DNA of 64,000 nt from Patescibacteria group bacterium (GTDB taxonomy: Bacteria > Patescibacteriota > Patescibacteriia > XYB2-FULL-38-15): contig JBAZJZ010000001.1 of assembly GCA_041650995.1 (NCBI GenBank), forward strand, positions 149,757-213,756. The letters are read 5' to 3'. Position numbers and translations under genes: made by a program. The notes beneath the pieces were generated by a model. The model did not search any database, was not told the DNA's origin, and saw only the letters and a list, made by a program, of their open reading frames with translations. Positions 6,020-40,094 of this stretch are shown in pieces (position 1 is the first letter of the stretch; each line of letters begins with the position of its first letter).

Positions 6020-6056
6020 AAAAAAAGAGAGCTTGTCGAAGGCTCTCGGTCGGTTC
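6020..6056 (-). terminator. rho-independent terminator for the minus-strand ORFan (hairpin gagagc-N9-gctctc plus T-run on minus strand)
   Basis: Perfect 6-bp stem at 6036..6056. The A-run 6020..6035 on + reads as a U-run on -. Confidence 0.55.
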
Positions 6057-6074
6057 GCGTGTTTGCAAACCGTT

Positions 6075-6341
6075 TTACGACTTCCGCTGTCGCGTCTCGC
6101 GGTAATGTAGAATTATTCCCACGACCGTGATGATGAAGAAGAGTATTTGTACGGCACCAATGCGCCAGGCTCCAGACATGAATGCATCAATTCCGATGCC
6201 AAGTTGGCCGAGGAGCGAGAAGATCATGAAGAGTAAAAACTCCCGATCGTAAGTGAGCTTTGTGCCCTTGAGTGAAAGTCGCACCCATGCGATCGCTTGG
6301 AGGGTTATCAAGAAATACAGAACGAGTCGAAGTCCGTCCAT
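6075..6341 (-). CDS. small membrane protein, GC-elevated ORFan (88 aa from ATG; the track ORF starts at an upstream GTG)
   Basis: Only minus-strand gene in the first 60 kb. ~50 % GC versus ~33 % in the flanks. AAGGAGG RBS 5 nt before the ATG (plus CAT at 6339..6341). 2-3 TM helices. Confidence 0.55.
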   Translation of the reverse strand: MDGLRLVLYFLITLQAIAWVRLSLKGTKLTYDREFLLFMIFSLLGQLGIGIDAFMSGAWRIGAVQILFFIITVVGIILHYRETRQRKS

Positions 6342-6357
6342 TAGTTCCTCCTTCTTT

Positions 6358-6407
6358 ACCACAACTTTGTGGTCGTTTAATATTAATGGATATTAGAAAA
6401 TTGTCAA
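6358..6407 (-). promoter_or_regulatory. sigma70-like promoter for the minus ORFan (-35 TTGACA = plus 6402..6407, -10 TAATAT ~6380..6385) with a perfect palindrome ACCACAA-CT-TTGTGGT (6358..6373) at about +1
   Basis: Read from the reverse complement. The 7-bp-arm palindrome sits between promoter and RBS, an operator-like placement. Confidence 0.45.
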
Positions 6408-6438
6408 CATAAATTCAGTTTCGTCTTTTAGTGATTTT

Positions 6439-6448
6439 GTGCTATAAT
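6439..6448 (+). promoter_or_regulatory. extended -10 promoter (TGcTATAAT) upstream of hpf
   Basis: TTTTGTGCTATAAT. The same TTTTGTGnTATAAT box recurs before the genes at 15162, 17611, 19239, 25375, 25968 and 35368. Confidence 0.5.
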
Positions 6449-6476
6449 TTGATAATTAATCATTAATATTTTCCAT

Positions 6477-6773
6477 ATGCAAATTGACTATTTTTTCAAA
6501 AATTTAACCCCGAATGAAAAGAAGTGGTGTGAGGAATATGTTGAGACGAAAATTCCGCAGTTAGAAAAATTAATTCATCGGCAGGCGGAAGATTCAGTCT
6601 CGCTCCGAATAAAGGCGGAAAAGTTCAGCACCAATAGCGCTTACAAAATTACTTTCGATTTAAAACTGCCAAAACAAAGTTTTCTCGTGAGCGAGGATGA
6701 CCATACGATTGTTGAGGCGATTGATTTGGCTAAAGATAAATTGATCGCGCAATTAAAGAAATTAAAAAGATAA
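6477..6773 (+). CDS. hpf: ribosome hibernation-promoting factor / RaiA (YfiA family)
   Basis: 98 aa, typical HPF length and beta-alpha pattern (MQIDYFFKNLTPNEKKW...). Confidence 0.65.
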   Translation: MQIDYFFKNLTPNEKKWCEEYVETKIPQLEKLIHRQAEDSVSLRIKAEKFSTNSAYKITFDLKLPKQSFLVSEDDHTIVEAIDLAKDKLIAQLKKLKR

Positions 6774-6775
6774 CT

Positions 6776-7777
6776 ATGGCAAAAAATTTTGACGTCGTGA
6801 CGATTGGTGGCGCGGCGCGGGATATTACTTTTTATACCAAAGAAGGAAGATTAGTTGCCCAAATGAAAGATCCGTTGCGGCAGAAGCTTTTAGGATTTGA
6901 GTACGGCGCGAAAATCAATATTGAAAAATCATTTCAAACTTTTGGCGGAGGAGCGGCGAACGCGGCTGTGGCTTTGGCGCGCTTAGGTTTGAAGACCGCG
7001 GCGATCGCGCGAGTCGGAAAAGATGAAGACGGCCGGGCAGTCATCACAAATTTAGTGAAAAATAAAATTGACACAAAATTTATTCAAATTGATCCGGCCG
7101 CTAAAACCGGTTTTTCTTTTATTGTAACTTTTGGTCCGGAAGTTGAGCATACGGCGTTTCTATTCCGCGGGGCGAATAATAATTTAAAACTCGCGGCTCG
7201 CGATTTAAAATTAAAAACGGACTGGTTTTATGTCGCGTCGCTCTCTGGCGAGGGATGGCGCGGCGTGCTCGATTCCGTGGTCGCAAAAAAAGAAACGCGG
7301 CTTGCCTGGAATCCGGGAAACACGCAGCTTGCGGCAGGTCTTTCGGGTTTAAAAAAATACATGGCAAAAACGGCGATATTTTTTGTAAATAAAGATGAGG
7401 CAATTCAACTTGTTGTCTCTCTTCCAAAATATAAAAAAGCGAGCACGACTTGGCTAAATCAGCCGAAAAATCTTTTCGGGGTTTTGGCGGAATTTTGTCC
7501 GGGAATTTTGGTAATTACCGACGGTGCGAAAGGCGCATATGTTTTTTTTCGCGGGAAAATACATCACCAAATTTCTTTAAGTAAAAAAATTGTGGACACG
7601 ACCGGGGCTGGCGACACATTTTGCTCAAGCTTTCTCGCCGGCTACATTAATTATTGCGGAGATATTTTAAAAGCCGCCAAACTCGGTGCTATAAACAGCG
7701 CTTACAATTTAACTGGCATCGGAGCGCAAGAACCTCTTTTAACTTGGCGCGAGGCCGAAAAATTAATGGGAAAATAA
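6776..7777 (+). CDS. PfkB-family carbohydrate kinase (ribokinase-like)
   Basis: GGAANAAVALARLG N-terminal motif and DTTGAGDTF C-terminal motif. Confidence 0.8.
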   Translation: MAKNFDVVTIGGAARDITFYTKEGRLVAQMKDPLRQKLLGFEYGAKINIEKSFQTFGGGAANAAVALARLGLKTAAIARVGKDEDGRAVITNLVKNKIDTKFIQIDPAAKTGFSFIVTFGPEVEHTAFLFRGANNNLKLAARDLKLKTDWFYVASLSGEGWRGVLDSVVAKKETRLAWNPGNTQLAAGLSGLKKYMAKTAIFFVNKDEAIQLVVSLPKYKKASTTWLNQPKNLFGVLAEFCPGILVITDGAKGAYVFFRGKIHHQISLSKKIVDTTGAGDTFCSSFLAGYINYCGDILKAAKLGAINSAYNLTGIGAQEPLLTWREAEKLMGK

Positions 7778-7778
7778 T

Positions 7779-8360
7779 ATGAAAACAATAAAAGTAAAAG
7801 TGGAAATTTCCGCGCGCCACATTCATCTTAATCAAACTGATTTGGAAAAACTTTTTGGCGCGGGATATGAATTAAAAAAAATAAAAGATTTGTCGCAAGA
7901 AGGGGAGTTTGCCGCGGAAGAAACCGTGGCGCTCGTCGGACCAAAAAGAAAATTAGAAAATTTGCGAGTAGTCGGGCCGGTACGCCCAGCGACGCAAATT
8001 GAGCTTGCTTACACTGATGCTTTTTCGATTGGCCTTGATGTGCCGCTCCGGATTTCCGGAGATGTGGTCGGTTCGGCCGGGGCGAAAATTATTGGTCCAG
8101 CTGGTGAAGTTGATTTAGTTGAAGGTGTAATTGTCGCTAAACGCCATTTACACATTAATCAAAAAGAAGCTGATGAAATTGGCCTTAAAAATGATGATTT
8201 GGTAAAAGTTAAAGTCGCGGGTGAGCGGGGATTAGTTTTTGAAAATGTGGTTGTTCGCGTCAAACCTAATTTCCATACTTCAATCCACATTGATACCGAC
8301 GAAGCCAACGCTTGCGGTTGCGGAAAAGTTTGTAGTTTTGGCGAATTGATTTTGGAATAA
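7779..8360 (+). CDS. pduL: phosphate propanoyl/acetyl-transferase PduL-type
   Basis: 193 aa with the two PduL half-repeats (SARHIHL... and AKRHLHI...). ATG overlaps the upstream stop. Immediately followed by ackA. Confidence 0.7.
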   Translation: MKTIKVKVEISARHIHLNQTDLEKLFGAGYELKKIKDLSQEGEFAAEETVALVGPKRKLENLRVVGPVRPATQIELAYTDAFSIGLDVPLRISGDVVGSAGAKIIGPAGEVDLVEGVIVAKRHLHINQKEADEIGLKNDDLVKVKVAGERGLVFENVVVRVKPNFHTSIHIDTDEANACGCGKVCSFGELILE

Positions 8361-8363
8361 TTT

Positions 8364-9503
8364 ATGAAATATATTTTAGTTATCAATTCTGGTAGCGCGA
8401 CGCTGAAGTTTGCACTTTTTGAAAAAGAAACGCTTAAAAAGATTGCTTCAGGAATTGTTGAGCGCATCAATCTGCCTGGGAGTTTTTTAGAATGTAAAAT
8501 TGGACGCCAAGAATTGAAAATCAATCGCCAAGCTTCTAATCATGAAGCAGCTTTTAAGTTAGTGTTAGAAAAAATTTCTAGCCAATATTCAAAGGAGAAT
8601 ATTCTAATTGTCGGCCATCGCGTTGTTCACGGCGGAGAGGAGTTTACCAAGCCGACGGTTATTACGCCAACGGTATTGAAAAATTTAGCAAAATATGATA
8701 AGTTATCGCCGTTGCATAATCCGGCGAATTTGATGGGAATTCGGGCATGCTTGAAGCTTTTGCCTCGCGCTAAAAATGTCGCGGTTTTTGACACGGCATT
8801 TTATAAAACTTTACCCGACTACGCCTACACTTACGCTCTTCCGATAGATTTTTATAAGAAGCATGCAATTCGGCGTTATGGTTTTCATGGAATTTCACAC
8901 GAATTTGTTGCGCACGAGGCGGCAAGAATTTTTAAAAAACCGTTAGCAAAATTAAATTTGATAACATGCCACCTGGGAAGTGGCGCGAGTATTACAGCAA
9001 TCCGCAACGGCCGGGCGGTGGATACAAGCATGGGCTTTACGCCGCTCGAAGGGCTCGTGATGTCAACGCGTTCCGGCGACCTTGATCCAGCTATTTTGCT
9101 TTATTTAATTCGAGAATTAAAATTAAGCCCGCAGGAAGTTGATAATATTTTAAATAAAAAATCGGGTCTTCTCGGTCTTTCGGGGATGGCCGACATGCGT
9201 GATGTGCTCACGGCTGCGGGTTATAAAGTAGCGGGATTTAAGGGTAAAAAAGTCGATGCGAAAAAAAGAAAATTAGCTAAACTCGCACTTCAAGTTTTTG
9301 TTTATCGGGTACAAAAATATATTGCTGCTTACGCCGGGATTTTAGGAAAAATTGATGCCATAATTTTTACGGCCGGCATTGGAGAGAGAAATAAAACAGT
9401 CAGGGATCTAATAATGAAAAATTTAAAAATTTCCGGCCAGCCGAAAATTTTAGCCATTCCGACGAACGAAGAATTGATGATTGTTCGAAAATTAAAAATT
9501 TAA
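8364..9503 (+). CDS. ackA: acetate kinase
   Basis: 379 aa, N-terminal ILVINSGSATLKFALF sugar-kinase fold, AckA length. Confidence 0.85.
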   Translation: MKYILVINSGSATLKFALFEKETLKKIASGIVERINLPGSFLECKIGRQELKINRQASNHEAAFKLVLEKISSQYSKENILIVGHRVVHGGEEFTKPTVITPTVLKNLAKYDKLSPLHNPANLMGIRACLKLLPRAKNVAVFDTAFYKTLPDYAYTYALPIDFYKKHAIRRYGFHGISHEFVAHEAARIFKKPLAKLNLITCHLGSGASITAIRNGRAVDTSMGFTPLEGLVMSTRSGDLDPAILLYLIRELKLSPQEVDNILNKKSGLLGLSGMADMRDVLTAAGYKVAGFKGKKVDAKKRKLAKLALQVFVYRVQKYIAAYAGILGKIDAIIFTAGIGERNKTVRDLIMKNLKISGQPKILAIPTNEELMIVRKLKI

Positions 9504-9512
9504 GATAAAACC

Positions 9513-9782
9513 ATGGAAGATCAAAAAACATCAATGAAATTAGAAGTGATTGAAAAAATTTCTGGGTTGGCTACAGCTAGTTTGGGTTTGGTGGCGGCTT
9601 TGGCTTGGAACGAAGCGATTTTAGAATTATTTAAAAAGATTTTTGGTGAGCAAGGTACGTTAATAGCAAAATTTATTTACGCAGTAGCGGTTACGATTTT
9701 AGTCATCTTAATTACAATTCAGTTTGGTAGGGTAATTAATAAATTGAAGGGAAAAACGGAAAAAAAGAATGACATTGCGTAA
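9513..9782 (+). CDS. small membrane protein (DUF5654-like)
   Basis: 89 aa, two hydrophobic helices. Overlaps the murJ start by 14 nt. Confidence 0.5.
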   Translation: MEDQKTSMKLEVIEKISGLATASLGLVAALAWNEAILELFKKIFGEQGTLIAKFIYAVAVTILVILITIQFGRVINKLKGKTEKKNDIA

Positions 9783-11400: not shown

Positions 11401-11402
11401 TT

Positions 11403-13184
11403 ATGCAGCAAGATAAGATTAGGAATTTTTGTATCATCGCTCATATTGATCACGGAAAGTCGACGCTCGCCGACCGTCTTTTGGAATTTACCGGAACCGT
11501 GTCGCGGCGGGAAATGAAAAATCAACTGCTTGATATGATGGATTTGGAACGAGAGCGGGGGATTACGATAAAATTGCAGCCGGTTAGAATGAATTACAAA
11601 GATTTTATTTTAAATTTGATTGATACTCCCGGTCATGTTGATTTTAATTATGAAGTTTCTCGTTCGCTTGCCGCAGTGGAAGGCGCTCTGCTTTTGGTTG
11701 ACGCGACTCAAGGAGTTCAGGCACAAACCCTGGGAAATTTATATTTGGCCTTAGAACAGAATTTAGCGATTATTCCGGTTGTCAATAAAGTTGATTTAAA
11801 AAACGCTGAAGTAGAAAAAACAGTTCAGGAAATTGTGGCTCTTGTCGGCTGTAAAAAAGAAGAAGTGATTTTGGCGTCTGGAAAAACCGGTGTTGGGGTG
11901 CCGGAAATTTTGGAAGCGGTTGTTAAAAAAGTTCCGCCGCCGGTTGGTGAAATTAATAATCCTCTCCGAGCTCTTATTTTTGATTCCAAATACGATGATT
12001 ATAAAGGCGTGGTGGCTTACGTCCGAGCTGTTGATGGCGAAGTAAAACGTGGCGACAAGATGTTTTTAATGGCTACAAAAACTGAAAGTGAAGTTTTGGA
12101 AGTAGGGTATTTTAAACCAAAGTTTCAGCCAGCCGAAAAATTATCGGTCGGGGAAATTGGTTATATTGTTACGGGTTTGAAAGAAATTGAAAAGTGTAGA
12201 GTTGGCGATACGGTTACTGCTCGTGGTTCAGAGTTAATGGTTCAAAGTTTGCCCGGCTACAAAGAAGTTAAGCCCATGGTTTTCGCGGGAATTTTTTGCA
12301 AAGAAGGGGATGATTTTCCGAAACTCAGAGAGGCGATTTTAAAATTAAAACTAAACGACGCATCGCTTACTTTTGAAACAGAACAATCCAAGGCTTTGGG
12401 ATTTGGTTTTCGGTGCGGTCTTTTGGGACTTCTCCACCTTGAAATAGTGGAAGAGCGACTGCGACGGGAACATAATCTTGATGTTATTGTTACGGTGCCG
12501 TCCGTGGCTTACCGTATTACTACGGCAAAAAATGAAGTGATAATTGTAAAAAGTCCGATGGAGTTGCCCGATCCGTCACACGTAAAATTGATTGAAGAGC
12601 CATGGATTAAAATTGATGTTGTTTCCCCCGGAAATTTTATTGGTGGAATTATGCAGATGGTTCAGGAAAAGAGAGGGGTGTATCAGAACACGGAATATCT
12701 TGACGCTGATCGGGTAATTTTACATTATGAAATTCCTCTCTCGGCAATTCTTGTGGATTTTTATGACAAATTAAAAAGTGTAAGTTCTGGTTATGCATCC
12801 TTGAATTATGAATTTTTTGGATATAAAAAAGCCGACGTTGTAAAAATGGATATTTTGGTCGCGAGCGAACCAGTTGAAGCGTTGGCCACAATTGTTTACC
12901 GCGATACGGCTCAGGACGTTGGTCGGAGGATTGTTCAGTCTTTGAAAAAAGTTTTGCCGCGGCAGATGTTTGAAGTTAAAATCCAGGCGGCACTTGGCGG
13001 AAAAATTGTTGCTTCAGAACATTTGCCAGCGATGAAAAAAGACGTGACTGCTAAACTTTACGGGGGAGATGTAACACGCAAGAACAAACTTTTGGAAAAA
13101 CAGAAAAAAGGTAAGAAAAAAATGAAAGCTTTGGGCAAGGTTGATATTCCACCAGAGGCATTTTTAGCGGTTTTGAAAAAATAG
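11403..13184 (+). CDS. lepA: elongation factor 4 (LepA)
   Basis: 593 aa, G1 box IIAHIDHGKSTLADRL, DTPGHVDF, NKVD. LepA-specific C-terminal domain. Confidence 0.9.
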   Translation: MQQDKIRNFCIIAHIDHGKSTLADRLLEFTGTVSRREMKNQLLDMMDLERERGITIKLQPVRMNYKDFILNLIDTPGHVDFNYEVSRSLAAVEGALLLVDATQGVQAQTLGNLYLALEQNLAIIPVVNKVDLKNAEVEKTVQEIVALVGCKKEEVILASGKTGVGVPEILEAVVKKVPPPVGEINNPLRALIFDSKYDDYKGVVAYVRAVDGEVKRGDKMFLMATKTESEVLEVGYFKPKFQPAEKLSVGEIGYIVTGLKEIEKCRVGDTVTARGSELMVQSLPGYKEVKPMVFAGIFCKEGDDFPKLREAILKLKLNDASLTFETEQSKALGFGFRCGLLGLLHLEIVEERLRREHNLDVIVTVPSVAYRITTAKNEVIIVKSPMELPDPSHVKLIEEPWIKIDVVSPGNFIGGIMQMVQEKRGVYQNTEYLDADRVILHYEIPLSAILVDFYDKLKSVSSGYASLNYEFFGYKKADVVKMDILVASEPVEALATIVYRDTAQDVGRRIVQSLKKVLPRQMFEVKIQAALGGKIVASEHLPAMKKDVTAKLYGGDVTRKNKLLEKQKKGKKKMKALGKVDIPPEAFLAVLKK

Positions 13185-13254
13185 CGAACGAGATGGAGTG
13201 GCACCGCCTTGCGGTGCCAAAAAGTAACAGCGCAAGGCGCTGTCATTCCGGAAT

Positions 13255-13279
13255 CCACGCGAAAAGCGTGGATTTTTAT
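13255..13279 (+). terminator. rho-independent terminator after lepA (ccacgc-gaaaa-gcgtgg + TTTTTAT)
   Basis: Third of three consecutive hairpins (13199..13218, 13228..13242, 13255..13271). Only this one has a U-tail. Confidence 0.7.
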
Positions 13280-13388
13280 ATTGGCGTGGAGTTGTTTGAA
13301 TTAGTATATATTAGCAATAATTATGACAATTTATTTTGGCTAATTTAAGCTAAAATAATGAATTTTTTGGGAAATAGTGTCAGAAACC

Positions 13389-13418
13389 CTTGACAAAATA
13401 CGGAATATATGTTATACT
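13389..13418 (+). promoter_or_regulatory. near-consensus sigma70 promoter TTGACA-N18-TATACT driving a ~410-nt leader and the high-GC ORFan
   Basis: cccTTGACAaaatacggaatatatgtTATACTta. Extended TG present. Confidence 0.55.
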
Positions 13419-13830
13419 TACTTGTTAAGCTGAAATAGGCTTAAAGATTAAAAAAAGTGCTTGTCGTGCTGGAACAGATGCGCTTCGCGCGCTGTTCTCC
13501 TACGAATTACGAATCTATTACGAATATACGAATAGATTACGCACATTGAAAAAAGTGCCAGAGAAACTTGGAGGAGGAAAGTCTTCGTGAACCATTAATT
13601 GGTAACCACGAGACCCGGCATGAGGTTCAATTAAATTTCGGTGTCCGTCCTGCGGATTACTAAAAGTTAATTGACCAAAATGCCACCGGCCAGTCCTGTG
13701 TTATCAGGACAGGCCAACTCACCTCCAAATTCCTCTGGCACACTCCGTAGAATCGGAGAGCCAAAGGTCAGATCGTGGATGGTTCCCGGTCTGATTTTTC
13801 ATAACTGCCAAGAGAAGAAGGAGATTGGAT

Positions 13831-14910
13831 ATGGCGGAAGCGACGAAGATCGTCCCGGTGCCGGCAGGCACCCTGACCGACGAGGATTACGAGGAAATGA
13901 TCGTCGCCGCCATGCCGTCTCCCGTGGAGACGCAGGTGGCGCCGACCCTGGTCGTGACCGAGCCGGAGAAGCCGGCCGAGCCCAAGAAGCGGCGGGTTTG
14001 CAGCAAGTGCGGCCACCACGACGGGAACAGCGTCGGCAGGATCAGGCGTGGTCGACTGGCCGAGAAGTGGGACAAGGAGCGGGGCATCAGGGTGTACTAC
14101 GTCGATTGGTTCTGCCAGCCCTGCCTCGACCGCGAGTCCGAATTGCTCGAGCTCGAATGCGATCCGCGTCCGGTCGGCAAGGGCGGATACCTCATCGCCC
14201 TTTGCGGCCTCCGGAACAAGGAGGAGGCCGAGCGCTACGCCGCTCGGACCGCCAGGGAGCGGTACCAGGTGGCGAAGGCCACATGGCTCGCCATCCTGGC
14301 GGGCGAGAAGCCCTTCCTCGAGAACGTCGAGAGGGAGACGGGGTGCTGCGAGTTCGGCGGCTGCGACACCGAAGTGGACGCCGAGGTGTTCGCTGTCGTG
14401 AACGGCCAGCTTCGCCGCTTCTGTCGCCTCCACGCCGAGACGCTGCGGGAGATCAAGGTGAAGGGGCGGAACAAAGACCCGCGCCTCATGGCCTGGCGAG
14501 GTCCGGAAGCTGAGGCCAAGTGCCAGCGGCACTTGGCCTGGCTCAGGCACCAGGCCAAGGAAGCCGAGCGCCGCGCGACCCCGGCGAGCCCCGAGTTCGT
14601 CGATCGTCTGAAGGGCGTCTTCGACCGTCGCTCCAACGATGAGCGCAAGGCCGACAGGAGCGAGGCGTCTCGGACCGCCAAGGAGCGGCAGGCGGCCTAC
14701 GCCGCGGCGCTTCGGAACGGCGGGAGCCTCGCTGACGTCGTGTCCGTGTCCGAAGAGACGGTCGAGACCAGGGACGACGGCTCGGATCCGGTCTGGGCCG
14801 AGATCGTCGCCCACAACCACGCGGTCGACGCCCGCTGCGCCGGCAAGCGCAAGAAGGGTGGCGGCAAGAAGGACGGCAAGGACAAGGGCGGCAAGAACAA
14901 GCGCCGCTAG
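13831..14910 (+). CDS. high-GC ORFan: Cys-cluster (Zn-binding-like) protein with lysine-rich C-terminal tail
   Basis: AAGGAG RBS 13817..13822, ATG 13831. ~65 % GC with G/C at ~90 % of third positions in this frame only; the minus 13768..14952 and other-frame ORFs are shadows. CSKCGHH...CQPC and CCEFGGCD...C clusters. KRKKGGGKKDGKDKGGKNKRR tail. Confidence 0.7.
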   Translation: MAEATKIVPVPAGTLTDEDYEEMIVAAMPSPVETQVAPTLVVTEPEKPAEPKKRRVCSKCGHHDGNSVGRIRRGRLAEKWDKERGIRVYYVDWFCQPCLDRESELLELECDPRPVGKGGYLIALCGLRNKEEAERYAARTARERYQVAKATWLAILAGEKPFLENVERETGCCEFGGCDTEVDAEVFAVVNGQLRRFCRLHAETLREIKVKGRNKDPRLMAWRGPEAEAKCQRHLAWLRHQAKEAERRATPASPEFVDRLKGVFDRRSNDERKADRSEASRTAKERQAAYAAALRNGGSLADVVSVSEETVETRDDGSDPVWAEIVAHNHAVDARCAGKRKKGGGKKDGKDKGGKNKRR

Positions 14911-14941
14911 CCGTCCCCTCGGTTCGTTCCTTTCAATATTT

Positions 14942-15063
14942 TCTTGGAGCAAGTAGTCTGTGCAATGCAGACACTGTTTGCAAATCGAGAAATCGAGGCG
15001 TGACAGGATCTTGCTCCAAGTCCCTTTCCTCTGAATCAGTATAAGTTGGTTTGGAGGAAAGGG
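14942..15063. repeat. nested inverted repeats downstream of the high-GC ORF
   Basis: cttggagcaag (14942..14952) / cttgctccaag (15009..15019). tccctttcctc (15021..15031) / gaggaaaggga (15053..15063). Internal gtctg-N7-cagac and a tandem aaatcgag x2. Confidence 0.6.
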
Positions 15064-15121
15064 ATTAATAACAAAAACAAAATTTTAGTCATTTTTGACT
15101 ATATTTAAATCCCATACAAGA

Positions 15122-15148
15122 ACACTGCCGCTTGGCGGTGTTTTTGTT
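15122..15148 (+). terminator. terminator-like hairpin (cactgccgc-ttg-gcggtg) + TTTTTGTTTT
   Basis: GC stem with U-run, directly upstream of the recJ promoter box (TGcTATAAT at 15159..15167). Confidence 0.5.
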
Positions 15149-15195
15149 TTAAAAGATGTGCTATAATAGTCCAATATTTATTTCTTAATTTATTT

Positions 15196-15291
15196 ATGAA
15201 AAAAAGAAATTTATTGAAAATCGTTTGGATAATTTTAAGCGCCATGATTGTTTTTTCAATGGTTATTTGGACGGTAGCCCCGATGTTTTAA
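15196..15291 (+). CDS. 31-aa hydrophobic micro-ORF (MKKRNLLKIVWIILSAMIVFSMVIWTVAPMF) between the promoter and recJ
   Basis: ATG..TAA in the leader of recJ. Single TM-like helix. Not in the ORF track (<60 aa). Confidence 0.3.
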   Translation: MKKRNLLKIVWIILSAMIVFSMVIWTVAPMF

Positions 15292-15300
15292 ATTGAGTTT

Positions 15301-17025
15301 ATGAAGTGGAAAATTGCTGAACAAATCAATGGGGAGTTTAAAAATAAATTTCCGGAGATTGATCCGGTGATTTTGCAATTACTGGCAAATCGGGGAATTA
15401 AAACTCAGGAGCAGATTGACGAATTTTTATATCCTGATTACAGCCAGGATATTCATGATCCATATCTTTTTTTAGATATGGAAAAAGCAGTGGAAAGAAT
15501 TTTTTTGGCTTTAGAAAAAAAAGAAAAAATAATAGTACACGGCGATTACGACGCTGACGGAGTTTGTTCGGCGTTAGTTGTGGTTTCTACTCTTTTAGCT
15601 ATGGGAGCTGATGTTCAGGTTTATTTGCCTCATCGCGAACTTGAGGGTTATGGATTGAATATGCAGACTGTGGAAGAACTTGGAAAAAATGGAGTGAATT
15701 TAATTATCACAACAGATTGTGGCATTAGCAATCGTCTGGAAATAAAAAGAGCTGCGGAACTTGGGATAGACGTAATTATTACCGACCATCACGCCGAGCC
15801 CCCGAATTTGCCGGAAGCGGCGTTTGCGATTATTGATCCGCACCTTTCTCGTGAGAAATATCCATTTCGCGACTTGGCTGGGGCGGGAGTTGCTTTTAAA
15901 TTAGTTCAGGCGATTTTAAAAAGTCCACAGTTTAAATTCGGCGGTTTGCAGTTTGACCCTGAGGCTTTTGAAAAATGGTTATTGGATTTAGTAGCAATTG
16001 CTACGATTACTGATATAATGCCTCTTTTGGGAGAAAACCGGACTTTGGTAAAACATGGGCTTTTGGTTTTAAATAAAACTCAGCGCATTGGTTTAAAAAA
16101 ATTAGTTGAATCGTTGGGATTAAATAAAAATAAAGATCTTGATGCGAAAAATGTTGCTTTTCAAATTGGACCGCGCCTTAACGCCGCTGGCAGAATAGAT
16201 CATGCTAATCAAGCGTATGAACTTTTAAAAATCGATGATGTGGTTGAAGTCCAAAATTTGGTTGACGCCCTAAATAAAACAAATGAAGGCAGGCAAGGTT
16301 TAAGCGAGCGCGTGATGGCCGAAGCCAAGGCGCAAATTGGGGAAGATATTGGCGAGCAAAAAGTTTTATTTGCAAAAGGCGACGGGTGGCCGGTTGGGAT
16401 TGTTGGTTTGGTTGCAGGGAAAATCGCTGAAAATTTTTGGCGACCGACTTTTATTATGACAGAGAGAGAGGAGGATATAATGGGTTCTGGCAGAAGTATT
16501 CCAGAGTTTGATATTACAGAAGGGCTTCACGAGGCAAAAGATTTTTTATCTCATTATGGCGGACACGCCGGCGCTTGCGGCTTTACTTTAAAAAATAAAA
16601 AAGATTTAAAAAAATTTGAAAAAATATTGAAAAAATTTGTGGAGCAAAAATTATCTGGATTAGAGCTTGTGCCGACATTGAATATTGATGCAGAAGTGCG
16701 TTTGGAAAAAATAAACTGGGAATTGTTTGAACTTTTGGAAAAATTTGCGCCATTTGGCAAGGCAAATGAGCGGCCGCGGTATTTAGGACGAGAATTTACA
16801 GTGGAAAGTTTTGAAAGTGTGGGGACAAATGGGAATCATCTTAGAACAAATTTGAGCCAGGGGAATGGTGTCCGAAAAAAATTTATCGGGTTTTGTTTTG
16901 GTGAGTGGTGTCGGAAATTAAAAGTTGGGGATAAGATTGATGTGGTTTTTGAGGTTGATGTTAATGAGTGGAATGGAAATAGGGAACTGCAGATGAAAAT
17001 TATTGATTTAAAATTGAGTGAATAA
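15301..17025 (+). CDS. recJ: single-stranded-DNA-specific exonuclease RecJ
   Basis: 574 aa. DHH motifs (HGDYDADGVCS, ITDHHAE), DHHA1 (GGHAGACG). Confidence 0.85.
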   Translation: MKWKIAEQINGEFKNKFPEIDPVILQLLANRGIKTQEQIDEFLYPDYSQDIHDPYLFLDMEKAVERIFLALEKKEKIIVHGDYDADGVCSALVVVSTLLAMGADVQVYLPHRELEGYGLNMQTVEELGKNGVNLIITTDCGISNRLEIKRAAELGIDVIITDHHAEPPNLPEAAFAIIDPHLSREKYPFRDLAGAGVAFKLVQAILKSPQFKFGGLQFDPEAFEKWLLDLVAIATITDIMPLLGENRTLVKHGLLVLNKTQRIGLKKLVESLGLNKNKDLDAKNVAFQIGPRLNAAGRIDHANQAYELLKIDDVVEVQNLVDALNKTNEGRQGLSERVMAEAKAQIGEDIGEQKVLFAKGDGWPVGIVGLVAGKIAENFWRPTFIMTEREEDIMGSGRSIPEFDITEGLHEAKDFLSHYGGHAGACGFTLKNKKDLKKFEKILKKFVEQKLSGLELVPTLNIDAEVRLEKINWELFELLEKFAPFGKANERPRYLGREFTVESFESVGTNGNHLRTNLSQGNGVRKKFIGFCFGEWCRKLKVGDKIDVVFEVDVNEWNGNRELQMKIIDLKLSE

Positions 17026-17028
17026 TTT

Positions 17029-28638: not shown

Positions 28639-31601
<2,963 letters not shown>

Positions 31602-31631
31602 TTATGTTTTTAGGCGGTATAATAAGTAAAT

Positions 31632-31925: not shown

Positions 31926-31952
31926 TGAATTATGAATTAGGAATTGTGAATT

Positions 31953-33374: not shown

Positions 33375-33380
33375 AATACA

Positions 33381-33974: not shown

Positions 33975-33977
33975 GAT

Positions 33978-34433
33978 ATGACCGTTGAAGTCGATCTCTA
34001 CTCTTTAGTTAAATTTATCGGCGGGACGCTGGCCGCGATCGCTTTTATTTTTTTAATATACCGCGCGTACAAAGCTATTGCGGTATTTTTTAAAAGTAGG
34101 GAATATGATCTAGATAAGAGCGGCATAAAAAAACGTTGGCAGGAGATAGAAAAAATGCTCGATGGTCCCGGTGAAATGAATTATAAAATAGCCGTGATGG
34201 AAGCGGACAAAATGCTTGATTATGTTTTAAAATCAATGTCAATGGCTGGAAAAGATATGGGAGAGAGGATCCGATTCGCGAGTTTTAAATACAGCCGGCT
34301 AAGAAAAGTTTGGTGGGCGCATGTTTTACGAAATCAGCTTGTGCACGAAGCGACTTTTGTTTTGGATTATGGCATGGCCAAGAGAGCAATAAAAACATTT
34401 AGGCGCGCGCTCGAAGAATTGGGCGCGTTATAA
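33978..34433 (+). CDS. hypothetical membrane-anchored protein
   Basis: 151 aa with N-terminal TM (FIGGTLAAIAFIFLIY). Confidence 0.4.
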   Translation: MTVEVDLYSLVKFIGGTLAAIAFIFLIYRAYKAIAVFFKSREYDLDKSGIKKRWQEIEKMLDGPGEMNYKIAVMEADKMLDYVLKSMSMAGKDMGERIRFASFKYSRLRKVWWAHVLRNQLVHEATFVLDYGMAKRAIKTFRRALEELGAL

Positions 34434-34460
34434 ATAAATTAGTAATTAAGAGTAAATTTT

Positions 34461-35291: not shown

Positions 35292-35400
35292 TCGTATAAA
35301 ACATCTTACCGCCGGCGAACATAGCTGGCGGTTTTCATTTGCTGTTAACCTTGACGCCCTTTTGTGGTATAATAAATGTAGATAGCAATACGCGAAGCAA

Positions 35401-35478
35401 GATTAATTAATTACTCAATTACTATCAATTACTTAATTACAACGAGGTAATTGGTAATTAGGTAATTAAGTAATTATT
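35401..35478. repeat. AATTAC x4 / GTAATT x4 convergent hexamer array (quasi-palindrome) in the 5' leader of the 35510 gene
   Basis: AATTAC at 35409, 35417, 35427, 35435. GTAATT at 35447, 35454, 35462, 35470. Putative promoter 35345..35373 upstream. Confidence 0.6.
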
Positions 35479-35509
35479 GTTTTGGTTTTGTGTTATTTAA
35501 ATTCAAGCG

Positions 35510-36916
35510 ATGATCACTATTGATTTGAGTTATTTTGATACTTTAGCGACAATGTCGCCGCTTGCGATTATGTGGCGGCTTTTCGCCGACGGAGGGTGGG
35601 CAATAATCCTCTGGGTTTTTCTTTGGGGATCTTGGGAAATTTGGGTTAATTGGCGGCAAAATCTTTATGAGGCCAAACGCCGTTGGATATTTTTGGCGGT
35701 GGATATTCCCAAGGCCGTCTTGGATGAGCCTGGCCAATCGCCGCGTGCCGTAGAAAATATATTTGCTCATTTGGACGGTGCTCACGGCTCTGACACTCTT
35801 TGGGAAAAGTATTGGGAAGGCAAAACTCAGGATTGGTTTAGTTTGGAAATAGTGAGCATCGAAGGGTACATCCAATTTGTCATTCGCACTCGCGATAAAT
35901 TTCGTGACCTAGTGGAAGCGGCGATTTACGCGCAATATCCCGACGCGGAAATTACGGAAGTTATTGATTACACCAAATGGGCGCCAAAGAAATTTCCCGA
36001 TCCTGAGTGGGATTTATTTGGTACAGAGTGGATTAAAGTTAGAAAAGAAGATGCCTACCCGCTTCGGACATATCATGATTTCGAAGATCCGGCGACTAAA
36101 GAATTTAAAGATCCTCTGGCAGCCGTGCTTGAAACGATGTCTAAAATGGGAAAAGGTGAACATATCTGGTTCCAAATAATTGTGACGCCGATCAGTCAGA
36201 AAGAATGGACTACGAAAGGTGTAAATTTAGTTAAAAAGTTAATCGGCGCGAAAGTGGAAGCTAAACAAACTTGGGCGGATAAAGCTTTTGATTTGCCGCT
36301 TAAGGTGGCCGATACCGCGCTTAGTCAAATTTTAAGCAGCGCGGAAGAGGCACCTAAGAAAAAAGAAGAAAAAAAAGAAGCATCGCAAATGCAATATCTT
36401 TCTCCCGGAACAAAAACTTTAGTGGAAGCCATTGAGAAAAAAATTTCCAAGATTGGTTTGCAAACAAAGGTAAGGATGATTTATCTCGCTCGAAAAGAAG
36501 TTTTTAAAAAGTCCCGCGCTGCGCATCCAATGGTTGGGGCTATTAAACAATTTAATACGCTGGATGGTCAAAGCATAAAGCCTGAGTATAAAAAAGTTGG
36601 CACAGCCGCCCATTATATTTTGGTAAAGAAAAGAGTGGCTTGGAAAAAAGAAAAAATCATGAGGGCTTACAAGGGACGCAGCCCCTCGCGCGGGATTGGT
36701 AAGGGTTTTGTTTTAAATATTGAAGAATTGGCTACAATGTGGCATTTTCCGGCGTTTTGGATTAAAGCACCGCCAGTTAAGACCGTGGAGAGTAAGCGAG
36801 GCGTTCCGCCCATTAATTTGCCTTTTGAAGAGCCGTCTTACATGAAAGCAATCGCGGAAACAGCGGGTGAGGAAGAATTGGAAAAAGAAATTCCGCCAAA
36901 CCTGCCCACGGCGTAG
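35510..36916 (+). CDS. membrane-anchored hypothetical protein partnered with the VirD4/HerA-like ATPase
   Basis: 468 aa. Two N-terminal TM helices (AIMWRLFADGGWAIILWVFLWGSWEIW), large soluble domain, K/E-rich linker. Confidence 0.45.
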   Translation: MITIDLSYFDTLATMSPLAIMWRLFADGGWAIILWVFLWGSWEIWVNWRQNLYEAKRRWIFLAVDIPKAVLDEPGQSPRAVENIFAHLDGAHGSDTLWEKYWEGKTQDWFSLEIVSIEGYIQFVIRTRDKFRDLVEAAIYAQYPDAEITEVIDYTKWAPKKFPDPEWDLFGTEWIKVRKEDAYPLRTYHDFEDPATKEFKDPLAAVLETMSKMGKGEHIWFQIIVTPISQKEWTTKGVNLVKKLIGAKVEAKQTWADKAFDLPLKVADTALSQILSSAEEAPKKKEEKKEASQMQYLSPGTKTLVEAIEKKISKIGLQTKVRMIYLARKEVFKKSRAAHPMVGAIKQFNTLDGQSIKPEYKKVGTAAHYILVKKRVAWKKEKIMRAYKGRSPSRGIGKGFVLNIEELATMWHFPAFWIKAPPVKTVESKRGVPPINLPFEEPSYMKAIAETAGEEELEKEIPPNLPTA

Positions 36917-36954
36917 AGATCTAATGTGGAAAATATTAAGTATAAATACTCACA

Positions 36955-39075
36955 ATGGAGGAAGTCGCATTGTTCGCTGAAACAAATTTTCGGGGGGAGC
37001 GGAAACGTTTCGGCATAAAAACCGACGATCGCCGTCGGCACATGTATATCATCGGTAAAACCGGCATGGGAAAAACTACCACGCTGGAGAATTTGATTAT
37101 CTCCGATATCAGAGCGGGTCGCGGTGTGGGCGTGGTTGATCCACATGGCGACTTAGCGGAAAAAATTCTTGATTTCATCCCGGCGGATAGAATTAACGAC
37201 GTGGTTTATTTTAATCCGGCTGACTTGGATTGGCCGATTGCTTTTAATATTTTGGAATCAATTGATCCAAGATATAAACACCTTGTCGCTTCCGGTATGA
37301 TGGGAGTTTTCAAAAAAATCTGGCCGGATGTTTGGTCGGCCCGAATGGAATATATTTTGAATAATACAATTTTAGCGCTCTTGGATTGTCCGGGGTCCAC
37401 GATGCTTGGCATCAACCGGATGTTGGCCGACAAGGATTATCGGAAAAAAGTTATTCTTAAATTGAAAGATCCGGTGGTTAAAGCTTTTTGGGTTGATGAA
37501 TTTGCAAAATATAATGAAAGATTTGCCACTGAAGCGATCGCACCAATTCAGAATAAAGTTGGTCAGTTTTTATCGGCTTCAATCGTTAGAAATATTGTTG
37601 GCCAGGTGAAATCTACGATTGATATGCGCGAGATAATGGACAGCCAAAAGATTTTTATAATGAATTTAGCAAAAGGCCGGATAGGTGAAGACGCGAGCGC
37701 TCTTTTGGGAAATATGCTTGTTACAAGAATTCAGTTGGCAGCCATGGGGCGCGTTGATATTCCGGAACCTCAGAGAAAAGATTTTTATCTCTATGTCGAC
37801 GAATTTCAAAATTTTGCCACGCTGAGTTTTGCCAATATTTTATCCGAGGCCAGAAAATATCGTTTGAATTTGATTTTAGCTCATCAATATATTGAACAGT
37901 TGGCCGAAGAAGTTGCCGCCGCTGTTTTTGGCAATGTCGGAACAATTGTTGCTTTTCGAATTGGCGCGGCTGATGCCGAGGTTTTGGAAAAGGAATTTTC
38001 ACCAACCTTCACGTCTGAAGATTTGGTAAATCTGACTAAGTACGACACGTACATGAAATTGATGATCAATGGAGTATCATCAACGCCTTTTTCCGCTTCG
38101 GGTTTGCCGCCAGTTATGGGCCCGACTGATAATCGAGATAAAGTCATCCGCGTTTCCCGGGAACGTTATGCCAAGCCGAAGGAAATCGTTGAAGAAAAAA
38201 TTATTCGCTGGAGCGGAATGCAGGTTATTGGCACTGAAGAAAAATCAGATGAAGAACTTGAAGCGGAGATTAAAAAGTCAATTGAAGAAAAAAAGAAAGA
38301 GGCAGAAGGTCTAAAAAGCGGAGTAGCGGAGGCGGGAGAAAAGAAAAAACCGGAAATGTCTCAAGTCGAACTTGAAGAACGTGCCATTACCGCTCGTGAA
38401 GCATTTTTGGAAAAATCAAAAGTTCAAGCGGTTGATTTCTTAAAAATTTTTGCTTCAGAACCAGAAGAAAGGGAAAAGATTATTGAAGAACAAGAAATAA
38501 AAAAGGAAGTGGCTGCTCCAACCGTGATTGTACGCCCGCCGAAAGTTGTGATTAAACCGACAGAACAAATTAATATAGATATACAAATAAAGGAACCGCA
38601 GCGGCATGAAAAGCCGGCAAGGGAAGAAAAAAGGGTGCCGGTTCAAAAACAAGAAAAAGCTGTCCCTCAAAAATCAGCGACAGAGGAAGATCTTCCGTCG
38701 CCCCTGAAGCTGGATGAGCCGGAGGAGAAAAAAATTGCATCTGTTTCGGAAAATCTCCCTACAGTTTCTTTGGATAAAAAATCAACTCCGGCTGTGATGC
38801 CCGCGCCTCCAGCTGTTTTGCCGATTAAAAAAGAAGAAAAGAAAAAAGAAGAGGATAGGGATAAAAAGACATTTGAAGAAAAATTTCCTTACGAAATAAT
38901 TTGCTCGGCTTGCGGAAAACCGGATAGAGTTTCTTTTAACCCCGATCCGAATCGGCCAGTTTATTGTAAGGCCTGTCTCAAAATTGAAAAAGAAAAGGAA
39001 AGGCAGGCGAAGAAAAATAAAAATAGACAGAAACAAGTGCCACGAGCCGCAGGAACGGAGCCGAAGAGTTCATAA
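36955..39075 (+). CDS. VirD4/TraG-like (DUF87/HerA-FtsK superfamily) P-loop ATPase with K/E-rich linker and C-terminal CxxC...CxxC zinc ribbon
   Basis: Walker A IIGKTGMGKTT, Walker B FYLYVDEFQNF, 'TraD/TraG' type DNA-binding core. Terminal CSACGKPDRVSFNPDPNRPVYCKAC. Confidence 0.65.
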   Translation: MEEVALFAETNFRGERKRFGIKTDDRRRHMYIIGKTGMGKTTTLENLIISDIRAGRGVGVVDPHGDLAEKILDFIPADRINDVVYFNPADLDWPIAFNILESIDPRYKHLVASGMMGVFKKIWPDVWSARMEYILNNTILALLDCPGSTMLGINRMLADKDYRKKVILKLKDPVVKAFWVDEFAKYNERFATEAIAPIQNKVGQFLSASIVRNIVGQVKSTIDMREIMDSQKIFIMNLAKGRIGEDASALLGNMLVTRIQLAAMGRVDIPEPQRKDFYLYVDEFQNFATLSFANILSEARKYRLNLILAHQYIEQLAEEVAAAVFGNVGTIVAFRIGAADAEVLEKEFSPTFTSEDLVNLTKYDTYMKLMINGVSSTPFSASGLPPVMGPTDNRDKVIRVSRERYAKPKEIVEEKIIRWSGMQVIGTEEKSDEELEAEIKKSIEEKKKEAEGLKSGVAEAGEKKKPEMSQVELEERAITAREAFLEKSKVQAVDFLKIFASEPEEREKIIEEQEIKKEVAAPTVIVRPPKVVIKPTEQINIDIQIKEPQRHEKPAREEKRVPVQKQEKAVPQKSATEEDLPSPLKLDEPEEKKIASVSENLPTVSLDKKSTPAVMPAPPAVLPIKKEEKKKEEDRDKKTFEEKFPYEIICSACGKPDRVSFNPDPNRPVYCKACLKIEKEKERQAKKNKNRQKQVPRAAGTEPKSS

Positions 39076-39096
39076 TTTACAAAACATAAAAGAAAA

Positions 39097-39121
39097 ACAA
39101 GCTCTTGAAAAGCTTGTTTTT
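39097..39121 (+). terminator. rho-independent terminator (acaagct-cttgaaa-agcttgt + TTTTT)
   Basis: Perfect 7-bp stem with a U-run after the ATPase gene. Confidence 0.75.
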
Positions 39122-39142
39122 ATGTGGTAAAATTGGTTCGCT

Positions 39143-39688
39143 ATGAATTTAACTAAACCTAAATTATTACTTCATATTTGTTGCGGCGTTTGCGGGGCAT
39201 GGGTGCCTAAAAAGCTGTCCGCAGATTTTGACGTAACTTTATATTTTTTTAATCCAAATATTGCTCCGGAGGAAGAGTACAAAAAAAGATTGGCTGCGGC
39301 GTGGGAGGTAGCAAAAGAGGCACAAATAGAATTGGCTGAAGGGCAGTATCAGCCGCAGGAATGGCTGGCTTTAGTTCGTGGCCACGAGAGTGACCCGGAA
39401 GGCGGAGCACGATGTGAAATGTGTTTTAGTTTACGTCTCGGGGAAACCGTAAAACATGCCAAAGAAAATGGTTTTGAATATTTTGCTTCAACCTTGACCA
39501 TTGGCCGGAATAAAAAAGCGGCGGTGATAAATCCGCTCGGGGAAAAATGGGCAAAACAATTTGGCCTGAAATTTTTGGCGGAAGATTTTAAAAAGGGCGG
39601 CGGGCAGGTAGAGACCGACAAAGAGTCGCGTCGCCTGCACTTATATCGGCAAAATTATTGTGGTTGTATTTTTTCAATAAAAAAATAA
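39143..39688 (+). CDS. queH: epoxyqueuosine reductase QueH (DUF208)
   Basis: N-terminal LLLHICCGVCG and conserved Cys pattern (CEMC). 181 aa. Confidence 0.65.
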   Translation: MNLTKPKLLLHICCGVCGAWVPKKLSADFDVTLYFFNPNIAPEEEYKKRLAAAWEVAKEAQIELAEGQYQPQEWLALVRGHESDPEGGARCEMCFSLRLGETVKHAKENGFEYFASTLTIGRNKKAAVINPLGEKWAKQFGLKFLAEDFKKGGGQVETDKESRRLHLYRQNYCGCIFSIKK

Positions 39689-39748
39689 AAAAGAAAGAGT
39701 TGACAAAATTGTTTTTTTAATATATCCTCTCTCCAAGAGGAGGAGCAA

Positions 39749-40054
39749 ATGTTGGACGACGGTGGAATAGACTGGGGTGATGATGTCCGCGAGGGGAGGA
39801 TGGTTCGTTGGCGCGATCCGCGAAACGCGGAATTGTTCAACAGCGGTCCTGGACCATTCCGCGCGGTGAGAGTTAGAGAAGATGAAGCTGCTCCCGTTTG
39901 TACTTGCGGTGGTAATGGCGGTGGTTTGCTCGACGATGGGCACAGTTTTCATTGTGAAATTCGAGTGAAGCGGGTTGTGGCAACGTTCGTGACGGTCGTA
40001 ATGAACGGACGGCATTGTTCTTTTGACGCAGATCTCTTCGAGGTCGAGAAGTGA
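39749..40054 (+). CDS. GC-rich ORFan, 101 aa, Cys/His-containing
   Basis: Own promoter (TTGACA at ~39701), strong RBS AGAGGAGGAG 6 nt before the ATG. ~60 % GC with GC-rich third positions. VCTCGGNGGG...HSFHC...C. Confidence 0.55.
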   Translation: MLDDGGIDWGDDVREGRMVRWRDPRNAELFNSGPGPFRAVRVREDEAAPVCTCGGNGGGLLDDGHSFHCEIRVKRVVATFVTVVMNGRHCSFDADLFEVEK

Positions 40055-40061
40055 GGACAGA

Positions 40062-40094
40062 AAGCGATGGTTAAAAGCCGTCGCTTGTTTTTTA
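40062..40094 (+). terminator. rho-independent terminator after the GC-rich ORFan (gcgatgg-ttaaaag-ccgtcgc + TTTTTT)
   Basis: Stem with one G-U pair and a U-run. Confidence 0.6.

Follow-up and report, generated by a model that had tools for sequence, protein, structure and literature searches.

What are three short, GC-shifted genes, each equipped with a strong promoter, a strong Shine-Dalgarno sequence (SD) and an intrinsic terminator, doing in a Patescibacteria genome whose core genes are AT-rich and SD-less? The question is raised by a stretch of 64,000 nucleotides of contig JBAZJZ010000001.1 (assembly GCA_041650995.1, positions 149,757 to 213,756), which we call the window, or W when it is compared with other genomes. 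An original prediction had singled out three open reading frames (ORFs) in it, here named c1, c2 (also X) and c3 (Table 1), and had proposed either a common source (mobile cargo scattered by recombination, or the components of one split system) or engineered or contaminant DNA. We propose instead that all three are accessory genes native to a narrow clade of Patescibacteria and restricted to it, each in a slot of its own, neither parts of one system nor imported together, and we give this reading a probability of roughly 0.6. The units have in common that they are clade-specific, independently transcribed, SD-led and GC-shifted. Each would be an autonomous monocistronic unit with its own sigma-70 promoter, strong SD and intrinsic terminator.

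Our comparison covered 64 kb of the host genome and ~10-20 kb for each relative; loci on public contigs of relatives are designated L001, L003 and so on. Looking up c1, c2, c3 and LepA as exact proteins in a contig index gave no matches, and relatives were identified by homology. The window is a compact stretch of 41.6% GC, with positive GC skew throughout and nearly all genes on the plus strand. Its LepA, X and MnmA proteins are exact matches to MFA5128494.1, MFA5128495.1 and MFA5128522.1, encoded on a 567,161-bp contig of a Patescibacteria group bacterium.

Composition and expression signals of the three units

All three ORFs are present where they had been placed, and the GC shift ascribed to them is real: c1, c2 and c3 have 49.4%, 68.1% and 53.9% GC. 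Their GC content at third codon positions (GC3) is 0.60, 0.89 and 0.51, against 0.33-0.40 in neighbouring genes. Tetranucleotide frequencies of the units correlate with those of the host at 0.12, -0.11 and 0.05, compared with 0.74-0.90 for host windows of the same size, and in a sliding tetranucleotide scan the three were the top three outliers outside the prophage part of the window. When their signatures are compared directly, the units are nearer to each other (r = 0.20-0.29) than to the host (0.05-0.12 or below), and dinucleotide distances (delta*) are 130-165 between units versus 268-284 from unit to host. In composition, the three units are alien to the genome that carries them.

The claim that host genes mostly lack a strong SD also holds, with an SD core of at least 4 nt absent in 59 of 75 ORFs. 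A core of at least 6 nt occurs in only six of the 75: c1, c2, c3, a type IV pilin (25454), RusA (53104) and one ORF of the phage region. Consensus promoters, by contrast, also occur natively here, as with the pair of perfect TTGACA-17-TATAAT promoters ahead of infA. Each ORF had further been described as bracketed by its own promoter and terminator. This is correct for c1 and c3 as placed, but c2 is not tightly bracketed: its only sigma-70-like promoter lies ~410 nt 5' of the ATG, and its terminator ~215 nt 3' of the stop codon. Because the stretches between promoter, ORF and terminator are conserved structured RNAs, the c2 unit is corrected to 13390-15150.

Conserved synteny of each unit in related genomes

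Each of the three units is conserved in related genomes, an outcome that had been named beforehand as speaking against a common origin. X lies between lepA and recJ in at least eight independent contigs (L001, L003, L004, L005, L006, L013, L018 and L034), which come from differing samples and assemblers and include an 886-kb chromosome-level assembly (L004). The c3 gene is located directly 3' of queH in relatives and has seven homologous clusters, and c1, which adjoins an S30AE/HPF gene, has a syntenic orthologue in L001. The description of the three as ORFans is therefore only loosely true: homologues are few, yet they were found for all three, as clusters for c2 and c3 and as the L001 orthologue for c1. 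The conserved syntenic slot of each unit also argues against recently scattered mobile cargo.

The units are reproducible and inherited, and two of them are absent from, or only partly represented in, public gene calls. The c3 gene of W has no exact match there (best 91%), and c1 is present in the JGI and ENA calls only, not in those of NCBI. Both were likely missed or mis-stranded by annotation pipelines, since an antisense ORF at 39674-40015 exceeds c3 in length.

A zinc-finger gene framed by two structured RNAs

The X locus is a previously undescribed arrangement of promoter, leader RNA, zinc-finger gene with a basic tail, 3' RNA element and terminator. The X protein is acidic at its N-terminus, contains two zinc modules of the Cys4 type and ends in a basic tail rich in Gly and Lys; its cysteines C57, C60, C95, C98, C173, C178, C198 and C231 are invariant. 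We obtained no match to it in Pfam, NCBIfam, PADLOC, PHROGs or the sequences of PDB, and fold searches returned no fold match, only small zinc-finger matches. The protein has no signal peptide and no known surface domain; to judge by its zinc modules and Lys/Gly tail, it may bind nucleic acids or carry an export signal. The family is narrow, comprising ten protein clusters besides that of X itself and 18 representatives at 50% identity in 1.84 billion proteins. Given GC values of 0.67/0.48/0.89 at the three codon positions, the X frame is the coding frame, and the long ORFs in antisense and in the +2 frame are a side effect of GC richness. We rejected the idea of X as a phage gene: no relatives were found in the viral contigs of IMG/VR, and the sole viral match to the pattern of the 3' element was due to chance, as were 7 of the 16 metagenome matches to that pattern. 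The hexamers of the X promoter are kept at all orthologous loci read, save one -10 position in L034.

Both the leader and the trailer are better conserved than X itself. The leader, ~380 nt long, is driven by the X promoter, and its terminator-like hairpin, which is conserved, ends 18 nt before the SD of X. Its minimum free energy corresponds to z = -7.7 versus shuffles. In an alignment of ten sequences, 21 of the 92 predicted pairs are compensatory (7.7 +/- 2.0 in column shuffles, 0-4 in slid controls), and 98.3% of cells are paired. The closing helix of the leader, P1, has 20 bp and is invariant among the ten sequences; it covaries in the distant L034, where CAGAG/CUCUG is replaced by CAAAG/CUUUG. 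In the 3' element, 13 of 46 pairs are compensatory, and the whole forms an imperfect palindrome whose closing stem is invariant and whose interior covaries. UUGGAG...CUCCAA closing stems and CCUCU/GGAGGAAAG motifs are common to this element and the leader junction.

These RNAs resemble no family in Rfam. There were no matches at the gathering threshold for the leader, the 3' element or any other part of the window; for the leader, nothing relevant appeared at E <= 10, and the best matches by E-value in 13150-15320 were far below threshold, to unrelated small RNA or microRNA models. Within the window, the pair of motifs occurs at the X locus only. Two scans of public collections yielded the leader and 3'-element motifs in about a dozen contigs in all, with the leader motif in only three species-level genomes. 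RNase P, transfer-messenger RNA (tmRNA) or another housekeeping RNA was rejected as an identity for the leader: the GGAGGAAAGUC segment, similar to CR-I of RNase P, forms a local hairpin, ARAGORN found neither tRNA nor tmRNA in the window, and Rfam gave no match. Also rejected were a group I or II intron and an OMEGA-type guide RNA (IscB/TnpB); Rfam returned no intron or HEARO, and X has no reverse transcriptase, RuvC or HNH domain.

The leader may gate the expression of X. Its terminator-like hairpin would attenuate transcription; alternatively, the 3' arm of P1 (CACCUCC..UUCCUCU), which is anti-SD-like, would mask the SD of X, with which it pairs in an alternative predicted fold when P1 is open. 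The leader is similar to riboswitch and attenuator leaders in its long, covarying multi-helix junction, in the terminator-like hairpin just 5' of an SD and in the predicted alternative pairing of the P1 arm with the SD. It is unlike them in that it belongs to no Rfam family, that no antiterminator was found and that its closing helix is unusually long at 20 bp.

Some further observations concern the RNAs and their surroundings. The leader of W contains an insert of ~65 nt (13476-13545) in a variable hairpin, with TACGAAT microrepeats; GCGAAT/ACGAAT repeats fill the loop of a 3'-element hairpin in L029 (12390-12450), and other inserts at the leader position occur in L005, L015 and L018. The 5' arm of the leader at 13566-13578 (ACUUGGAGGAGGAAAG) is complementary over 9-13 nt to the 3' element at 15009-15030 (CUUGCUCCAAGU / CCCUUUCCUC), and a long-range pairing of leader and trailer that brackets the X messenger RNA is possible. 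Directly after lepA, at 13190-13275, three GC-rich hairpins stand in a row; they are missing from L001, L003 and L005, and this site holds different hairpin inserts in L004 and L034. Just 5' of recJ, at 15197-15292, a conserved ORF for a hydrophobic peptide of 31 residues (MKKRNLLKIVWIILSAMIVFSMVIWTVAPMF) has its own TGTGCTATAAT promoter and is found in the relatives examined.

X alleles are mosaics exchanged by recombination

Between W and L003, LepA, MurJ and RecJ are 99.5%, 98.5% and 96.5% identical (dS 0.06-0.19), whereas X shows 69% amino-acid identity, with dN of 0.25 and dS of 0.49. Nucleotide identity in a sliding comparison of the two is 95-100% up to ~13943, 45-83% over 13973-14804 and again 90-100% from 14834, which delimits a divergent X block of ~870 nt between near-identical genomes. 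When W is compared with L004 and L005, the flanks have dS of 0.8-2.1 and dN/dS of 0.05-0.08, versus dN/dS of ~1 for X; over all comparisons, X ranges from ~0.5 to 1. Between W and L001, the 3' end of X and the 3' element are 93-100% identical and the flanks ~84%, and L001 and L026 differ in a 120-nt divergent patch inside X amid 98-100% identity. Alleles and flanks are phylogenetically discordant, and the breakpoints are sharp and intragenic. From these sharp borders of identity, we conclude that the X alleles are mosaic and that recombination exchanges them. At both the c1 and the c2 loci, GC-rich ORFs turn over by recombination.

Searches with tblastn and for repeats found no silent copies or paralogues of X in the window. 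Nor does any segment of X have a second copy there, as the template and variable repeats of diversity-generating retroelements would, and the variation covers ~870 nt rather than a short C-terminal variable repeat. No reverse transcriptase was detected near X among the ORFs scanned, the sole RVT_3 match being an RNase H gene conserved in all relatives. X nevertheless shares many features with mosaic loci of the Neisseria pilE/tbpB type: a fixed single locus, conserved ends, a hypervariable interior, sharp intragenic breakpoints, decoupling of allele and flanks, and elevated dN/dS. It differs from them in the absence of silent donors in the window and of a signal peptide or known surface domain, in its flanking structured RNAs and in an extreme, persistent GC3 anomaly. 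The leader and the 3' element could act as homology arms for the swapping of X alleles after DNA uptake, and possibly also as regulatory or processing sites at the RNA level. Genes for type IV pili are present in the clade.

The GC enrichment of X persists across loci. In seven loci, GC3 of X is 0.89, 0.89, 0.85, 0.93, 0.93, 0.93 and 0.90, and that of the flanking genes 0.33-0.53. According to amelioration theory, a flank divergence of 0.8-2 in dS should have eroded a passively imported composition, so the GC excess appears to be actively maintained and not the residue of recent transfer. Maintenance is most plausibly due to GC-biased gene conversion at a recombination hot spot, or to selection. 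X resembles hot spots of biased conversion in combining high recombination and raised GC3 at one locus, and in a shift that, where constraint is weak, extends to every codon position and to the amino-acid composition.

Different evolutionary regimes at c1 and c3

The c1 gene encodes a rapidly diverging small membrane protein, apparently with three membrane spans, and with a basic C-terminus. A database search with the protein retrieved only itself, and it has no match in Pfam, NCBIfam, PADLOC or PHROGs. Its syntenic orthologue in L001 (2055-2312, minus strand) is 39% identical (BLASTP E = 4e-16), with dN of 0.54, dS of 1.05 and hence dN/dS of 0.5; the flanking S30AE and PfkB proteins of the same two genomes are 96% and 88% identical. 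In the divergent promoter region, the -35 box, the -10 box and a hairpin in the 5' untranslated region (UTR) of c1 are kept in W, L001 and L005. Since promoter and 5'UTR are conserved while the ORFs behind them differ, c1 occupies a small variable operon slot. In W the slot holds c1 alone; in L001 it holds an additional membrane ORF of 79 residues and then the c1 orthologue; in L005 it holds an acidic ORF of 133 residues and then a Cys-rich one of ~70. All of these ORFs have strong SDs and GC3 of 0.6-0.75. Thus, the slot retains its promoter and 5'UTR, and it is the GC-rich small ORFs that vary. An ORF at 5516-6007 (163 residues) converges on c1; it has no Pfam match and is 25% identical to the ORF at the same place in L001, between flanks of 88-96% identity.

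The c3 gene encodes a small Cys/His protein that is inherited vertically under purifying selection (dN/dS 0.11-0.15). Its -35 box is kept in L007 and has one substitution in L010/L012, and its terminator is conserved in L007 and L010 with compensatory changes in the stem. In L007, three added ORFs (284, 275 and 72 residues, at 6397-8588), without Pfam matches, sit between the c3 orthologue and mnmA, so the c3 neighbourhood also tolerates insertions.

Evidence that weighs against native accessory genes with maintained GC

Several observations do not fit this account easily. A remote X homologue, L033, has GC3 of 0.58. Biased gene conversion in bacteria usually moves GC3 by a few percent, not from ~0.37 to 0.9. 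Crossovers would fall in the leader and the 3' element, and these recombining neighbours of X are not GC-rich; in both respects X departs from reported cases of GC-biased conversion. A GC-rich donor replicon or silent copies of X could lie beyond the examined DNA. The attenuation and SD masking proposed for the leader rest on predicted pairings, and no conserved antiterminator was identified in it. In c3, a moderate GC shift comes with neither recombination nor rapid evolution in evidence, so a single process may fail to account for all the units. Conversely, the fast-diverging ORF next to c1 (5516-6007) has a host-like GC3 of 0.32, so fast evolution alone does not raise GC; as a general cause of high GC, it is contradicted by this ORF.

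Alternative explanations

A more elaborate proposal for the X locus is that of an RNA-framed diversification cassette, in which the two RNAs serve as recombination handles and gates, a GC-driving process acts on the cargo and X is an exported host-interaction effector. A hypervariable zinc-finger protein would then be swapped between strains, at times joined by blocks of GC-rich ORFs; a locus-specific process, whether biased gene conversion of an extreme kind or some dedicated mechanism, would hold the cargo at ~68% GC in a 41% GC genome; and the conserved Lys/Gly tail could export X towards the host cell of an episymbiont. We consider this doubtful as a whole.

The added ORF blocks also recall integrons. 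The X locus might be an integron-like cassette array in which the 3' element is analogous to attC and promoterless, SD-led cassettes stand behind one strong promoter. L013 has an additional GC-rich block of ~570 nt with two small ORFs, each led by an SD (Y1/Y2), and a copy of the 3' element stands on either side of it; the two copies agree over 126 nt at 100% identity. L028 and L029 have the same layout, with the block between two diverged copies of the element. An element thus follows each ORF block, and the remote L033 has a trailer-like element and then another SD. The palindromic form of the element, with its invariant closing stem and covarying interior, would suit such a role; a GTTRRRY core was not recognised in it by eye. 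However, Pfam scans of neighbouring ORFs in the window revealed no integrase and no tyrosine or other recombinase. The Y1/Y2 block, homologous in the three genomes, is the sole additional cassette type seen, and looks more like a lineage-specific operon extension. The sequence of the element is conserved, whereas attC sites conserve mainly structure. Finally, the mosaic borders lie inside the X ORF and indicate homologous rather than site-specific recombination. On balance, we regard an integron-like array as improbable.

Recent acquisition of all three units from one GC-rich donor, with GC content yet to ameliorate, would account for their being strong outliers nearer to each other than to the host, for their host-atypical use of SDs and for the amino-acid and codon make-up of X, which is like that of a high-GC organism. 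In atypical composition, in having their own promoter and terminator and in encoding small ORFs without assigned function, the units also resemble genomic islets and phage morons, as do the GC-rich, Cys-rich mini-ORFs of the prophage in this window. However, relatives carry X, c3 and c1 in the same places, with no patchy distribution, and for lineages whose flanks differ by dS of 0.8-2, GC3 that is still 0.85-0.93 would be unexpected under amelioration theory. The long X contigs examined are Patescibacteria-like, with X between lepA and recJ, and no relative of X was found in viral contigs. Unlike islets and morons, the units lack mobility genes and scars: no integrase, tRNA gene or direct-repeat scars were seen at the slots (neighbours scanned; for direct repeats, the X unit in W). 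Moreover, promoters and 5'UTRs are host-like in composition, and conserved. A recent common donor is therefore unlikely.

We judge it just as unlikely that X and its leader form a conflict module of RNA and protein, for example a type III toxin-antitoxin locus or one for abortive infection. An abundant leader RNA would then neutralise or regulate X, a leaky terminator would set the ratio of the two, and the hypervariability would stem from an arms race with phage. The order of promoter, structured RNA, terminator-like hairpin, SD and protein gene resembles that of ToxIN-type loci, dN/dS of 0.5-1 and mosaic alleles are typical of conflict genes, and the family is narrow. Against this, X matches nothing in PADLOC, Pfam, NCBIfam or PHROGs and has no ToxN-like fold, so that no endoribonuclease of the ToxN/CptN/TenpN type is indicated; the leader lacks conserved tandem repeats, Tandem Repeats Finder (TRF) reporting only the TACGAAT heptamer microrepeat specific to W in its variable insert; and the locus has its fixed place among housekeeping genes instead of within a defence island.

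Could the three units make up a single split system whose parts are co-regulated by virtue of their similar design? They occur together in the W genome, a 149-kb contig (Ga0315286_10000005) has homologues of c3 and X, the L001 contig has c1 and X, and the arrangement of promoter, SD and terminator is alike in all. Such co-occurrence is expected from vertical inheritance within one clade, however, and in L005 the c1 slot has unrelated ORFs although X is present. The three proteins are not homologous to one another, no common flanking elements were found around the units, nor any common regulatory motif past the generic sigma-70 and SD consensus, and the same kind of strong SD precedes unrelated genes, among them the pilin (25454) and RusA (53104). 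With sharply different evolutionary regimes and differing GC3 as well, a split system is very unlikely.

It is also highly improbable that an overlapping function imposes the high GC of X, be it an antisense ORF, an inversion switch or an intragenic structured RNA. An in-register antisense frame (13768-14952) is stop-free across X in five of six orthologues, which is expected at GC3 of 0.9, but it is broken in L003. A 21-nt inverted repeat (13940-13960/14759-14779) lies near the borders of the mosaic block; it is not conserved, and the alleles are co-linear with their Cys motifs in register. The coding region has no excess of RNA structure over synonymous-codon shuffles (z of -0.35 to -1.4). 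A 12-bp palindrome in the KCQRHLAW codons, similar to P1 of the leader, is broken by synonymous changes in L001 and L003, and we take it as a chance feature.

An assembly chimera, contaminant or engineered DNA, for which the abrupt GC step at 13.8-14.9 kb and the textbook design of promoter, ribosome-binding site and terminator would speak, is ruled out because the units hold their own syntenic positions in independent related Patescibacteria: separate assemblies of unrelated samples (Logan, JGI, ENA and NCBI) reproduce these junctions, once at the level of an 886-kb chromosome, the orthologues carry natural substitutions and the flanking RNAs covariation, and no vector-like or marker sequences were seen.

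Implications of clade-specific accessory genes

If the three units are native accessory genes, as we favour, abrupt GC islands with textbook signals in metagenome-assembled genomes of the candidate phyla radiation (CPR) need not mean contamination, which matters for genome curation. The leader and the 3' element add two new covariation-supported RNA motifs to Patescibacteria, for which very few non-coding RNAs have been described; a literature search on GC-rich or SD-led genes, or on non-coding RNAs, in Patescibacteria found nothing relevant. A gene that holds GC3 of ~0.9 in a genome with GC3 of ~0.37, and does so in lineages with strong synonymous divergence of the flanks, bears on the local determinants of GC content, a long-standing question, that is, mutation bias, biased gene conversion and selection. 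SD-led accessory genes next to SD-less housekeeping genes in one genome offer a handle on translation initiation in CPR bacteria. Since X is hypervariable and clade-specific in a probably host-dependent organism, it is a candidate interaction factor; if it were exported, it would be a rapidly evolving host-interaction effector.

Table 1. Positions of the three units, of the RNAs of the X locus and of genes in the phage-like block (window coordinates)
Feature	Position	Strand	Evidence or remark
c1 promoter, TTGACA-16-TAATAT	6380..6407	-	promoter scan
c1 SD, AAGGAGG	6347..6353	-	sequence; SD census
c1 ORF, 88 aa	6075..6341	-	translation; GC3 0.60
c1 intrinsic terminator, GAGAGC-loop-GCTCTC + T7	6020..6047	-	read from sequence
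X promoter, TTGACA-17-TATACT, TG upstream, 11/12 consensus matches	13390..13418	+	scan
Structured 5' leader of X	13425..13799	+	conservation, folding, covariation
Leader, 5' hairpin			
Leader, variable insert	13476-13545		
Leader, four-way junction	13555-13741		
Leader, small hairpin			
Leader, terminator-like hairpin + U-run	13764-13799		
X SD, AAGGAG	13818..13823	+	sequence; SD census
X (c2) ORF, 359 aa, 68% GC, GC3 0.89	13831..14910	+	= MFA5128495.1 (100%)
3' element	14942..15064	+	
3' element, three-way junction	14942-15019		closed by CUUGGAGCAAG/CUUGCUCCAAG
3' element, second hairpin	15021-15064		
X-unit intrinsic terminator	15124..15150	+	scan; kept in all orthologous loci
c3 promoter, TTGACA-17-TATCCT	39700..39728	+	promoter scan
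c3 SD, GAGGAGGAG	39737..39745	+	sequence; SD census
c3 ORF, 101 aa, small beta-barrel protein, conserved CxC...GHS..C loop	39749..40054	+	
c3 intrinsic terminator, 11-bp stem + T-run	40062..40094	+	scan
RNase_T exonuclease	50493		prophage block
RusA	53104		prophage block; strong SD
ParB-N6/N4 methylase	53625		prophage block
Portal protein with MuF domain	57158		prophage block
Depolymerase-like protein	59649		prophage block
HNH endonuclease	61088	-	prophage block

Other features of the window and of the contigs compared

The part of the window from ~47.6 to 64 kb is phage-derived in appearance (Table 1). It contains, at 62594-62964, two overlapping GC-rich, Cys-rich mini-ORFs of 64 and 59 residues, which are the strongest tetranucleotide outlier of the prophage block (r = -0.11). 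The C-terminus of the 64-residue product, GGDGKKARR, recalls the tail of X, and the 59-residue product has a CPHC...CQPC motif; neither shows significant homology to X. Given these ORFs, there is a weak possibility that they and the three units draw on a common accessory gene pool.

The tandem perfect promoters upstream of infA-rpmJ-rpsM lie at 43146-43174 and 43180-43208, and the hairpin with T-run downstream of them (43245-43280) may be a leader or attenuator. Among the contigs compared, OZ246416.1 (L004/L014), an 886-kb 'chromosome 1', is titled 'uncultured Gammaproteobacteria'; it has the X locus and matches the Patescibacteria loci in gene order, gene by gene, and its taxonomic label is probably wrong.

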